64,000 nt of DNA. Origin: Patescibacteria group bacterium. GTDB taxonomy: Bacteria; Patescibacteriota; Minisyncoccia; Phycocordibacterales; SBAW01. Made by a program: the position numbers and the translations under genes. The stretch's first letter is position 1. Each line of letters opens with the position of its first letter. Shown piece by piece: positions 13,903-58,145 of the stretch. Under the pieces are notes generated by a model. It was not told the DNA's origin and did not search any database. It worked only from the letters and a program-made list of their open reading frames with translations. The DNA lies in the NCBI GenBank assembly GCA_028866155.1, contig JAGWIT010000001.1, forward strand, positions 165 through 64,164, in the 5' to 3' direction.

Positions 13903-16900
13903 ATGGCGATCACTCAAAAAATAAAAAAGAGGAACGGCGAGATAGCTGACTTCCATCCCGAGAAGGTCACCATAGCGGTGCAAAAGGCTTTTGCCGCGGT
14001 CCTCGGCGACAGCCACGACGCCGACGCCATCGATATCACGCGCACCGTCGTCGATACCATCGACGCGAAGTTCGGCAACACGGCAGTTATGCCAAGCGTC
14101 GAGGATATCCAGGACCTCGTCGAGAACGCGCTCATGGAGCGCGGTTATTTTGGCGTCGCCAAGTCCTACATCATCTACCGTTACGAGCACGAAAAGATAC
14201 GCGAGGAGAAAAAACAGGAAGTCGCCGAGAAAATAGCCGACTCCGCCCTGCTCATCGTCAAACGCGGCGGTGCCAAAGAGCATTTTAGCGAGAGCAAGCT
14301 GACCCGGACCCTCCTGCGCGCGGCTGAGGGGCTTGAGCGCTCGATAGACGTGCCCGCTATCATCGCCCGGGTGCGCCAGGAGATGTATGAAGGCATCAAA
14401 ACAAGCGAAATACACGAAGTGCTCGTCATGGTCGTCCGCTCGCTCATTGAGCGCGACCCCGCCTACTCGATGGCCGCTTCGCGCCTGCTCCTTCAAGCCA
14501 TGTACCGCGAAGTCTTTGGCGAGTTTCAATACGAAAAGATTGAGAACGTCTACAAGCAGGCGTTTATGCAGGCAATAAAGCGCGGCGTTGAGATAGGCCA
14601 GTTCGACCCAAAGATGCTTGAGTTCGATCTTGAGGCGCTTGCCGAGCACCTGGTGCCCGAGCGCGACCGCGACTTTAAATATCTCGGCCTGCAAACGCTC
14701 GACAAAAACTATCTTTCGCGCGAGCACGGCACGCGCAAGCTGCTTGAAACTCCGCAAATCTTTTGGATGCGCATCGCCATGGGCACCGCGCTCGCCGAGA
14801 AGACTGAAGAGGAGCGCAACCGCTATGCCGCCCAGTTCTACGAAGTGATGTCCGCGATGCACTACACGCCGTCCTCACCCACGCTCTACCACGCGGGGCT
14901 CGTCAAGCCACAGCTTTCCTCCTGCTTCCTCTCGACTGTGCCGGACGACCTCCACATGATATTTAACGAGTATAGCGACTCGGCACAGCTGCTCAAATAT
15001 GCCGGCGGCATCGGCGCCGACTGGACGCCGGTGCGGGCCACAGGTTCGATAATAAAGACGACCGGAGTCGAGAGCCAGGGCGTCATTCCCTTCCTCAAAG
15101 TTTCAAACGATGTGACCATATCCATCAACCGCTCGGGCCGCCGCCGCGGTGCCGCCGCCGTATACCTTGAGTACTGGCACCTCGATATCGAAGATTTCTT
15201 AGAGTTGCGCAAGAACACCGGCGACGAGCGCCGCCGCGCCCACGACCTCAACACCGCGGTGTGGATCCCCGACCTCTTTATGAAGCGCTTGCAGGAGGAC
15301 GGCTACTGGACGCTCTTTTCGCCCTCGGATGTCCCCGATCTCCACGACGCCTATGGCCGCAAGTTCGATCAACTCTACAACCACTATGAAAAGATGGCCG
15401 AAGCCGGGCAAATCCCGCATCACAAAAAGATCCGCGCCGCCGATTTATGGAAGAAGAACCTCACCATGCTCTTTGAGACTGGCCACCCATGGATTACCTG
15501 GAAGGACCCGTCAAATATCCGCTCGCCGCAGGACCACGTCGGCGTGGTGCACTCGAGCAACCTTTGCACCGAGATAACGCTCAACTCATCGGCTGCCGAG
15601 ACCGCGGTGTGCAACCTCGGCTCGATAAATATGTCGTCGTTCGTGCGGGGCGGCCAGTTTGACCGCGACCTGCTGAGCCGCGTGGTGCCGGTCGCTATGC
15701 GCATGCTCGACAACGTCATCGACATCAACTACTACCCGACCGAAAAAACCAAGCGAAGCAACATGAAGAACCGTCCGGTAGGCCTCGGGCTGCGCGGGCT
15801 CATGGACGCGCTCTACAAGATGAACATCAACTTCGACACCGACGAAGCGGTGCAGTTTAGCGACCAGTCGATGGAGGCCATCGCCTATCATGCCATCCTC
15901 TCCTCCGCACTTCTCGCCAAAGAGCGCGGCACCTACGAGACCTACAAAGGCTCCAAGTGGGACCGCGGCATTTTGCCGCAAGACACGCTCGCACTCCTCG
16001 AGCAGGAGCGCGGCGTCAAAATAGACGTCCCGCGCCACGAGACGCTCGATTGGCGGCTGGTCCGCGAAGCGGTGCGCGAGTGGGGCATGCGCAACTCAAA
16101 TACCATGGCCAACGCGCCGACCGCCTCGACCGCCAATATCGCCGGTTGCTACCCGACCATCGAGCCCATCTACAAAAACATCTACGTTAAGTCCAACATG
16201 GCGGGCGACTTTATGGTGGTCAACGAATTTTTGGTGAACGATCTCAAAAAACTGGGCTTGTGGAACATGGACATGCTCGAGAAGATAAAGTTCTACGATG
16301 GCTCTATCCAGCAAATCGGCGAGATACCGCCTGCCATCCGTGAAAAGTATAAAGAGGTGTTTGAGATGGAGCCGCAGTGGCTCGTTAAAGCGGCCGCCTA
16401 TCGCGGGCGCTGGATAGACCAAAGCCAATCGCTCAACATCTTCTACGGCGGTACCTCGGGCAAAGTGCTCTCGGACATTTATCAATACGCCTGGAGCCTC
16501 GGCCTCAAGACCACCTACTACTTGCGCACGATGGGCGCCAGCCGCATTGAGAAGTCGACCGTCAACATGGCGAAGTTCGGTTCAACCAGCACCTCCGACG
16601 CAGGTGTTGCCGCGCAGTCGATTGTCTCCTCAATAACCGTAGAAGAAACCGTTGCCGTCTTGCCTATCCAGCCGCATGAAGACCCCTCCTTCGCTAAAGC
16701 TTCGGAGGGTGCACCTTCTCCTATGGCACTTGTTGCCGACGTCGTCGCCTCAATAGAACATCGACAGGTTGAGGCAGGCCAGATGTCGTTGGATCCTGCT
16801 CGGGATAAACAGACGCCTATTCCTACCCTTGCAGCGATGGTTCCGAATATAGCACCGGCCGAAGAAAGAGGTTCATCAGGCATCCCAACCTTCGGCGCCT

Positions 16901-56306: not shown

Positions 56307-58145
56307 TTACCTGATTTCGAAGCCCTTTTCTTTGAGCGCGGCGGAGATTTTGTCCATAATCGCGTTCACTTCAATTTCGGTGAGCGTGCGGTCGAAGGAT
56401 TGAAAGATGAGGCGGTATGCAACCGACATCCTCCCCTCTTTTTCAAATTTATCAAAATATGTTCCTCCAGATATAAATATTCGAAGCCCAAGTGACTGCG
56501 GCCCAGTAAGCACATCAGTAATTATTGAACCAACACCGTGTTCGTCATAACCTTCTGGCTTCCATAAAGCAATATCACGTACGATATACGGATATTTTGA
56601 GAACGGTTGGTAACGCGTTGCTTGGGAGAGCGGGAGCTCGTCGTAGTATGACCGCTGGTCAAGCGGCTTTTGATAGGAGCTCAGCGGGATTTCTTTTGCC
56701 TCTTCTTTTTCGCCGACGGTGCCGACCATTATCTCTTCTTTGCCGCCCTGCCATACGGCACCTATCTCGAACAGTTTTATTTCCGGCAGATTCAGCAGAT
56801 ATTTATTGGGGATGTTTTTTTGGAGCGCTTCTTTGAGATTCTCGACGAGCGTTGAGCGCAGGTAGGGCTTGGTGCCGTCGACCTTGTTGAGCACGATGCG
56901 CTCGCCTTTGTCAGCAAAAACCGACGTATACACCTCGCTGTACCCTTGCGTCATCAAATCCTCACGGACCTTTTCGCTCCAATAAAAAGCCGGGTTGAGC
57001 TCGGGCTCCATGTCGGCAGGCGGCAATTCTTTGGCGGGAATTTTGTCATATCCGATGATGCGCGCCGCTTCTTCTATAAGATCCTCTTCTATCAAAAGAT
57101 CGAGCCGCTGGAACGGGATCTCAACGGTGACCGTGTCGTCCTGCTTTTGATACTTAAAACCCAGCCGCTCGAACGCGCGGATGATATCGCTCTGTGCGAT
57201 TGAGCTGCCGAGCAGGCGCCGCGCATGCGCGATTGAGAGCGCCACGGCGGAGGGCTTTTGCGGGATATTATACTTATCGACAAAACCTATCAGCTCCCCG
57301 TCGGCGAGTTTTTGTATCAGCTCGGCCACAGCCTGCATGCCAAAGCCCGCCAACTCGGGCGAGAGACCTTGCTCGAAGCGAGCGCTCGCGTCGGTGCGCA
57401 GCTTCAGCGCCTGTGCGGAACGGCGCACCGCAGAGCCGTCAAAATTGGCCGACTCAATGATGATGTCTTTGGTGGTCTCATCAATTGCGGCCGGCATACC
57501 TCCCTTGACTCCCGCTATGCCGACCGGCGCGCCCCCGGCGGTAATAACAGGCATGGAGTCTTTGAGCACGTAGCTTTTCTTGTCGAGCGCCACCACCACC
57601 ACCTCGCCGTCTTTGGCCGCGCGCACGCCGATATCGAGGCTGCCGAGCTTGCCCGCGTCGAACGCATGCAGCGGCTGGCCCAGGTTGAACATCACAAAGT
57701 TGGTCGCATCAACAATGTTATTAATTGAACGCTGACCCACTGCCGTCAGTCTGTCCTGCAGCCACTGCGGCGAAGGCTCGACTTTTACATTTTTAATGTA
57801 GCCGGCAATGTAACGCGGGCACAATTCTGCAGTCTCTATCGAAACAGACACCACATCGGTTTTTGGCAGCAGCGCGGGCTTTTGGGCAAGCGGGTCATGC
57901 GCGAGCGGGATATTGAGTATCGCCGAAAGCTCTCCCGCGACCCCGCGGTGCGAGAGCGCATCGTGCCCGCGGTTGGGGGTTATTTTGACATCAAGCACTT
58001 GATCTTCTATGTTAGACCCACGAGGTCGAACAGTTTCGATACCCTCAATTTCGAATGCATGGAACGTGAGCGCTTCGGCAAGAGCCTCAGCATTTGGCAA
58101 CGCTGTGTCGAAAAATTTAGTGAGCCAGAGGCGCGAGACTTTCAT
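56307..58145 (-). CDS. pheT: Phenylalanine--tRNA ligase beta subunit (short)
   Basis: TPNRG, B3/4 domain, EEAARIIGY, C-terminal RDIA...RTL. Confidence 0.93.
   Translation of the reverse strand: MKVSRLWLTKFFDTALPNAEALAEALTFHAFEIEGIETVRPRGSNIEDQVLDVKITPNRGHDALSHRGVAGELSAILNIPLAHDPLAQKPALLPKTDVVSVSIETAELCPRYIAGYIKNVKVEPSPQWLQDRLTAVGQRSINNIVDATNFVMFNLGQPLHAFDAGKLGSLDIGVRAAKDGEVVVVALDKKSYVLKDSMPVITAGGAPVGIAGVKGGMPAAIDETTKDIIIESANFDGSAVRRSAQALKLRTDASARFEQGLSPELAGFGMQAVAELIQKLADGELIGFVDKYNIPQKPSAVALSIAHARRLLGSSIAQSDIIRAFERLGFKYQKQDDTVTVEIPFQRLDLLIEEDLIEEAARIIGYDKIPAKELPPADMEPELNPAFYWSEKVREDLMTQGYSEVYTSVFADKGERIVLNKVDGTKPYLRSTLVENLKEALQKNIPNKYLLNLPEIKLFEIGAVWQGGKEEIMVGTVGEKEEAKEIPLSSYQKPLDQRSYYDELPLSQATRYQPFSKYPYIVRDIALWKPEGYDEHGVGSIITDVLTGPQSLGLRIFISGGTYFDKFEKEGRMSVAYRLIFQSFDRTLTEIEVNAIMDKISAALKEKGFEIR

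Follow-up and report, generated by a model that had tools for sequence, protein, structure and literature searches.

By what route do short palindromic repeats come to lie, in frame, within the essential genes of a small bacterial genome? The question is raised by a 64,000-nt stretch of a Patescibacteria group bacterium (assembly GCA_028866155.1, contig JAGWIT010000001.1; C27:165-64164 in our numbering, hereafter the window), which belongs to a genome of 900 kb in 66 contigs that is 96.6% complete. The GyrB encoded there shares 83% identity with the GyrB of a genome labelled Ca. Adlerbacteria and 71-74% with those of two labelled Ca. Kaiserbacteria; judged by this one gene, the organism is most likely Adlerbacteria-like. 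A reading made from the letters of the window, hereafter the sequence-only reading, had pointed to hairpins of four families (A to D) in nrdA, smc, rnr, gyrB, dnaG, pheT, rpoC and rpoD (gene names are that reader's labels together with the translations) and had proposed a multi-family system, akin to repetitive extragenic palindromes (REPs), that colonises proteins. We find that the in-frame hairpin repeats of several families in housekeeping genes are real. Quite probably they serve as recognition hairpins for two unrelated kinds of small single-strand-DNA enzyme, RAYT/TIRYT-like HUH transposases in the case of family C and, likely, Ssn-like GIY-YIG nucleases in that of families A, B and D, by which they are likely spread in trans. 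The proposal of a colonising REP-like system is supported, with corrections concerning target replacement, preference for genes and lineage range.

In-frame hairpin repeats and their hosts

All eight hairpin stretches lie where they had been placed, within the named open frames and in frame (Table 1). Their strengths by RNA folding range widely, from -20.5 kcal/mol in dnaG, -20.4 in rpoD, -16.4 in rpoC and -11.2 in nrdA to -5.1 in pheT, -4.7 in gyrB, -4.0 in smc and -3.1 in rnr. The smc copy is the least secure, being identical to the nrdA copy of family A at just 18/26 positions (hand count). Alignment with relatives added two inserts absent from the reader's list, one in rnr and one in rpoD; the latter is absent in 24/26 relatives and by eye looks like the hairpins that precede the tRNA-linked GIY-YIG genes described below.

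Pattern scans of the whole genome, which were shaped from its own copies so that the counts are no independent test, gave 5 copies of family A (3 coding), 8 of B (7), 2 of C by the strict pattern (1) and 5 of D (4), together with two further families, F (6 copies, 5 coding) and G (7 copies, 2 coding). The strict family C pattern missed the pheT copy, and its loose form, with 91 matches, is too unspecific. Because 22 of these 33 copies (67%) are coding in a genome that the gene caller puts at ~84% coding, the elements show no preference for genes; and since coding copies are under-represented, scarcity of intergenic space does not explain them, contrary to the sequence-only reading, which had described a genome almost without such space. 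Further in-frame palindromes lie outside the window, including one in a TsaD-like protein and five family F copies (Table 1). Among the top results listed by a repeat finder run on the window the element families are absent, and it was genome k-mers and the pattern scans that recovered them; Rfam reported tRNA only in the window, with no Rickettsia palindromic element (RPE) among the gathering-threshold matches.

For an independent test, the 739 coding sequences of this genome were searched with 200 sequences that flank RAYT and small GIY-YIG genes in other genomes. At a hairpin score of at least 17 the search returned 13 matches, as against a mean of 0.5 (maximum 3) in 15 codon shuffles and of 4.2 (maximum 6) in 10 synonymous, peptide-preserving shuffles; 5 of the 13 reflect neighbour-gene or tRNA homology, 1 is a duplicate row and 1 is doubtful, leaving 6 clear element sites. 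Per-family significance rests on the pattern scans and this joint test, by which the motifs exceed codon-shuffled sequence as the sequence-only reading had expected. That GC-rich variable loops produced these hairpins by chance, or their peptides by convergence, is barely credible: the smc and pheT copies are degenerate and about 4 of the 13 top matches survive synonymous shuffling, but sequences identical over 24 nt in unrelated genes and in different phyla, the codon-shuffle null and the matches to enzyme flanks all speak against it. Chance is ruled out for B, C, D and the nrdA copy of A, and possible for smc alone.

Family B illustrates how far such elements extend. The exact 24-mer found in rnr occurs in an estimated ~730 stored GTDB stretches, and the 121 loci returned are labelled Chloroflexota, Acidobacteriota, Bacteroidota, Actinomycetota, Pseudomonadota, Planctomycetota, Patescibacteria and others. 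A long frame spans the element at 68 of the loci and carries a Pfam domain at 33, of which 27 read family B in one and the same frame, the Gly/Ser-rich PSTGSGQ. By hand count the element lies within or between Pfam stretches in 21 cases, 17 of them in the PSTGSGQ frame and 12 outside Patescibacteria, as in the thymidylate synthase of Sinomicrobium weinanense (L323). Because family B stands in frame in genes of many phyla, coding palindromes are not limited to this lineage.

Candidate mobilising enzymes and their palindromes

The statement that no mobilising enzyme is visible in the window needs amending for its surroundings, where a Y1_Tnp gene sits 9.5 kb beyond. It is one of three in the genome (PF01797 above cut-off), all encoding RAYT-like proteins in open frames of 214-253 aa with intact HUH and Y-x-x-x-NP motifs; against NCBIfam REP_Tyr_transpos they score 31-40 bits, below the cut-off of 80. 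Each of the three genes has its own palindrome on both sides, with copies also in frame in host genes. That of the C27 gene lengthens a cysteine desulfurase by 13 aa at a site that is empty in 5/5 relatives, and those of the C20 and C1 genes occur in infB, a variable linker with no clean empty site, and in a glycosyltransferase. The flank palindromes also lie in frame within two of the transposase genes themselves, which recalls the in-frame REPs within TnpA-Y1 subclass 2.4 genes (PMC6006769; here and below, what is said of a cited paper refers to the part of it that was available). Family C stands on both sides of 8/29 RAYT loci from relatives, these 29 being the listed share of ~57 matches outside this genome, and on one side of 1/30 GIY-YIG loci; the patterns behind these counts, too, were modelled on the genome's own copies and give no independent test. 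As a separate observation, two identical IS200-like Y1 transposase copies occur in one relative (L085 and L110, G013), one of them within the coordinates of that genome's smc.

The other families occur beside small GIY-YIG genes. Family D lies on both sides of such a gene at L210 and upstream of another at L201; family B arrays lie on both sides of one at L493, in a B-rich genome labelled Pseudomonadota; A-like hairpins precede those at L196 and L143, and the nrdA element aligns with the hairpin upstream of L196 at 23/26 positions. RAYT and GIY-YIG genes are thus both flanked by the motif families of the window, C at the former and D, B and A at the latter, where the sequence-only reading had suggested looking. 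Pairing of an enzyme gene with its own flank is shown for the three RAYT-like genes of this genome and for family C and, at a single locus in each case, for D and B. Three of five small GIY-YIG proteins gave weak matches to group I intron endonucleases in NCBIfam.

Several features of the small GIY-YIG genes deserve mention in their own right. Of 71 such genes 18 directly precede a tRNA gene, and at 11 of these tRNA-linked loci (Table 1) the first 10-36 nt of the tRNA are duplicated upstream of the GIY-YIG gene, followed or interrupted by a hairpin. The arrangement suggests a cassette that may integrate at tRNA 5' ends, for which we found no report in the literature. By eye, one small GIY-YIG gene (L127, G031) has an apparent family-B-like insert both in its own coding sequence and upstream, and another (L120, G033) apparently interrupts the 5' part of a 16S rRNA gene.

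Empty sites, recurrence and the mode of movement

Orthologues with empty sites were found for gyrB, dnaG, pheT and rpoC, as in the in-frame insertions of RPEs, and not for rnr; the relatives compared are distant genomes of the same genus (80 genomes; GyrB identity 78-87%). The +8 aa of gyrB are missing in 27/29 relatives and form an 8-residue gap against the solved GyrB chains 4urm and 3zm7. Most relatives (25/29) have the native short form of dnaG, and the site of its +8 aa is a gap against the primase 5vaz. The +6 aa of pheT and the +8 aa of rpoC are absent in 21/29 and 7/7 relatives, respectively. Among the remaining hosts, in nrdA the nearest relatives (L426, L427) lack the element and L431 has the same element in the same place, and at the first rpoD site 4/26 relatives carry D-type sequence, the rest having a plain Lys-rich linker.

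The earlier claim that the elements are insertions that add peptides holds for these four genes with empty sites, except that the dnaG element partly replaces codons, and fails for rnr, where there is no net insertion. Target sequence is often lost at the elements, because rnr gains zero length and the ~39-nt element of dnaG yields only +24 nt. In the same way, the frame is kept at all eight sites, as had been stated, but the assignment to loops or linkers does not extend to rnr. The rnr stretch has equal length in 23/29 relatives, is shorter in 5 and has another hairpin inserted in 1, and over 24 nt the copy is the same as one that C64 carries in an unrelated gene. In an AlphaFold model (28 sequences, mean pLDDT 83), TLRQAQG falls at the end of one strand, a 2-residue turn and the start of the next (strands 67-75 and 78-83, pLDDT 87-90), so that the element is predicted to encode a strand-turn-strand rather than a disordered loop.

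No systematic target duplication accompanies the elements: among 33 family B copies, 21 have none of at least 3 nt and 4 have one of at least 4 nt, as against 5.8% of control pairs. A class of miniature inverted-repeat transposable elements, defined by terminal inverted repeats together with target-site duplication, was considered and set aside on these 33 copies. The bases flanking the 121 family B copies show weak preferences only.

The same sites have been filled more than once. In gyrB, L017 carries the same B variant as +9 aa with a different junction and L008 another insert, and the present genome groups with the empty L006 (support 0.988), not with L017. In dnaG, a separate family C dimer occupies this site in L217, which is nested among the empty L220, L215 and L216 (support 1.0). 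These are single-gene FastTree phylogenies with a weak backbone, and they suggest that one family struck the same site independently in non-sister lineages. The pheT loop holds different inserts in 8 relatives, with strong stems in three (L246, L256, L262), and the smc loop, by eye, holds other palindromes in L396, L397, L398, L410 and L422. Across gyrB, rnr, dnaG and pheT, 13/101 lineage-specific insertions have a stem score of at least 8, as against 1.0% of control windows.

A different history could be read into part of this pattern, namely that the insertions are old and ancestral, that most lineages have since lost them and that gene conversion between copies has kept them uniform. Some filled sites are indeed common to sisters and decaying (dnaG of L217 and L228; rpoD of L221 and L223), and worn family B remnants may persist in rnr of L156 and L162. 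We consider this history improbable, since the empty relatives have the native loop of distant solved structures and many precise reversions would be needed, since filled lineages are not sisters and different families occupy the same loop, and since the single-gene trees already suggest scattered filled alleles with different junctions.

We instead favor movement by enzymes. Each enzyme gene would be flanked by its own 20-30-nt palindrome, which is likely copied round the genome in trans; a nick at the hairpin would lead to its being joined or copied into a new location, where, judging from the junctions, 0-24 nt of target are lost and no fixed duplication arises. Activities on hairpins are established for both kinds of enzyme, TnpA-REP cleaving and transferring single-stranded hairpins in vitro (PMC8266576) and Ssn GIY-YIG proteins cutting single strands at their own hairpins (PMC11893778). 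Landing would be without bias to genes, and selection would likely keep those copies that preserve the frame and add a tolerable peptide at surface turns and linkers; as a consequence of such selection, the same few loops would be struck repeatedly by different families and Gly/Ser/Pro-rich frames would dominate. The enzyme cassettes are likely gained and lost through horizontal transfer, and families such as A, B and D would stay behind as orphans here. We thus infer that the enzymes moved these copies, that GIY-YIG nicking is able to do so and that selection sets the choice of loop and frame.

A number of points weigh against this reading. No clean empty site can be defined for nrdA, smc and rpoD, which have variable linkers; the junctions are read against distant relatives, without base-level resolution; and 88 of the 101 insertions fall below the stem threshold, many rows being shared indels rather than independent events. 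On the enzyme side, the three RAYT-like genes of the genome are not themselves flanked by family C, the B link comprises 1 of 8 small GIY-YIG genes among five genomes that carry B, together with copies upstream at L127 and L193, the A-like hairpins lie on the upstream side only, an obvious flanking hairpin is missing at many small GIY-YIG genes, and none of the 121 family B loci has a RAYT or GIY-YIG profile match within 300-600 nt. A profile search of the 96.6%-complete genome found no small GIY-YIG gene (the profile recovers its 73 training proteins), the sole GIY-YIG match being UvrC-sized; A, B and D therefore appear orphaned in this genome. Ssn has been shown only to cut, not to mobilise (PMC11893778), and no movement was observed here: contigs of sequencing run X4 match five elements without differences, with no empty allele among the rows listed. 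The X4, X6 and X7 contigs are near-identical and maybe one data set, which gives weak support against misassembly and is uninformative on polymorphism.

The main open alternative, if an unlikely one, keeps the hairpins and changes the step by which they land: the hairpin would be templated onto a partly similar target, replacing codons in one step, with short homology setting the site. It would account directly for the letter-perfect and length-neutral rnr copy in a structured hairpin, for the arm of the dnaG element that encodes the same A-R-S as many native alleles, for the same family at the same site in gyrB, dnaG, nrdA and rpoD, and for net gains often below the element size. The same pattern is, however, predicted by insertion with compensating deletion under selection for length and conserved residues; moreover, the elements in gyrB and rpoC, like that in the C64 gene, come close to pure insertion, and the base preferences beside the 121 family B copies are weak. 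A bolder extension, which we likewise hold as unlikely, is that hairpin-specific nicking enzymes use homology-guided copying to place their 20-30-nt recognition sequences on top of partly similar host codons and revisit sites in independent lineages. In this way, across bacteria, essential proteins would receive ready-made Gly/Ser linkers and even structured turns from non-coding selfish DNA, and small GIY-YIG nucleases would be a second, non-transposase mobiliser.

Relation to described repeats and further features

The system works like REPs and RPEs and is a denser, multi-family form of known bacterial repeats. Intragenic palindromes have been described for Rickettsia, Opitutus and others, as have tyrosine transposases flanked by terminal inverted repeats (PMC3733652). 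Like RPEs and the intragenic GTAG/CGTC REPs, the elements here are palindromes in housekeeping open reading frames that add residues in proposed linkers or loops (PMC3733652); they differ in being 20-40 nt long and in having many families of 2-8 copies each, and in their genus-wide empty sites, repeated strikes on the same loop and partial target replacement. Di Nocera 2013 found no enzyme for the CGTC repeats (PMC3733652).

On the transposase side, the closest likeness is to TIRtrons/TIRYT, TnpA-Y1 subclass 2.1 and RAYT group 1, in which an HUH gene has its own inverted or palindromic repeat with moderate copy numbers elsewhere (PMC3733652; PMC6006769; PMC5581495); group 1 flanks are modestly repeated (PMC5581495). 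For subclass 2.1, Quentin et al. report no REP-like sequence near the genes and describe a C-terminal helix-turn-helix (PMC6006769), whereas the proteins here are flanked by near-perfect palindromes, without a GTAG tag. With canonical REPs and REPINs of E. coli and Pseudomonas they share a hairpin recognised by an HUH enzyme in trans, but those form hundreds of extragenic, GTAG-tagged copies (PMC8266576), as against few, untagged and mostly coding ones here. By eye, neither the eight elements of the window nor the RAYT flanks of this genome have a GTAG/GTGG tag beside them; with no such tag, 2-8 copies per family and 22/33 copies coding, assignment to canonical REPs (groups 2 and 3) was rejected.

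The small GIY-YIG genes appear to resemble Ssn with its SRM/NTS repeats (Chenal 2025, PMC11893778), single-domain GIY-YIG proteins of ~80-100 aa with 20-50-nt hairpin flanks, found in many phyla in a layout like that of insertion sequences. They differ in that 2% of NTS lie in genes, as against most of the elements here, and in that many of the GIY-YIG genes here precede a tRNA with a duplicated tRNA 5' part. Patescibacteria do not appear in the available main text of that paper, and 12 of its 14 supplementary files contain no match to Patescibacteria, Parcubacteria or Paceibacter and one Saccharimonas row. The Neisseria NTS/SsnA pair modulates transformation and uptake sequences are often coding (PMC11893778), which, with the core replication and expression functions of several host genes, would fit host-selected tags like DNA uptake sequences that bias transformation or protect or restrict incoming DNA. 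Such tags are a very improbable explanation for elements that have 2-8 copies in each of many unrelated families, are net insertions rather than point-mutated motifs and are under-represented in genes.

A literature search, with most subscription journals outside its reach, found no paper on coding palindromes in Patescibacteria. To the known repeats this locus adds a second enzyme class, a length-neutral case in a (predicted) structured hairpin, apparently independent strikes on the same site and a cross-phylum frame bias. The way in which REPs spread is still debated as an open question (PMC8266576). Intergenic copies record it poorly, whereas copies in conserved genes have alignable empty sites from which junctions, target loss and recurrence can be read, and with its 80 genomes the genus offers enzyme-hairpin pairs by the dozen. 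Small GIY-YIG nucleases emerge from the data as candidate mobilisers. The elements also show where essential proteins tolerate insertions, and they caution against relying on short shared indels of these genomes as phylogenetic markers.

Table 1. Palindromic elements and associated loci. Unprefixed positions are those of the window; C and L denote our contig and locus numbers.
Feature	Position	Strand	Basis or remark
Family A hairpin, nrdA C-terminal linker, peptide PSFAKASEG	16684..16709	+	Variable linker
Nested family D hairpins, rpoD basic N-terminal tail	24033..24069	-	D-type sequence also in relatives
Extra hairpin-like insert, rpoD, ~+10 aa, not in reader's list	24084..24116 (approximate)	-	Relatives' alignment
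Family C dimer, dnaG, net +8 aa, replaces ~4-5 native codons	25388..25426	-	Relatives' alignment
Family D-type hairpin, rpoC part of fused rpoBC, net +8 aa	27953..27974	-	Empty in 7/7 relatives
Family B copy, rnr, zero length change, TLRQAQG	36438..36461	+	Relatives' alignment and structure model
Second hairpin-like insert, rnr, net +5 aa, not in reader's list	37505..37523 (approximate)	+	Relatives' alignment; 16-mer 4x in genome
Degenerate family A-like copy, smc acidic hypervariable loop, weakest case	38724..38749	-	No clean empty site
Family B variant, gyrB ATPase-domain turn, net +8 aa, PSNPSGQG	55931..55953	-	Empty in 27/29
Degenerate family C copy, pheT, net +6 aa	58011..58031	-	Empty in 21/29
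In-frame palindromes outside the window	G000 C59:5506-8942, C57:4988-6127, C60:14761-15177 and 35899-36828		
In-frame palindromes outside the window	C32:9839-11050, C64:30408-31049; also C1, C4, C11, C17, C36		
Family E copies	G000 C29:1061, 3354, 6181, 7816; C30:16014, 16789; C9:2102; C43:8118		
tRNA 5'-duplication loci in relatives	L130, L132, L137, L178, L179, L187, L192, L198, L201, L208, L211		

Three further features stand apart from the coding elements. A 35-40-nt repeat, family E, has 8 copies, all intergenic, four of them within 7 kb and one right after a tRNA-like 3' end; they are possibly island or cassette junctions. In the window, rpoB and rpoC are fused in a single frame of 2292 aa (26872-33750), and four tandem repeats of 30-36 nt (49002-49135) lie in a 331-aa open reading frame with a likely signal peptide and a Tyr/Ser/Gly-rich region.

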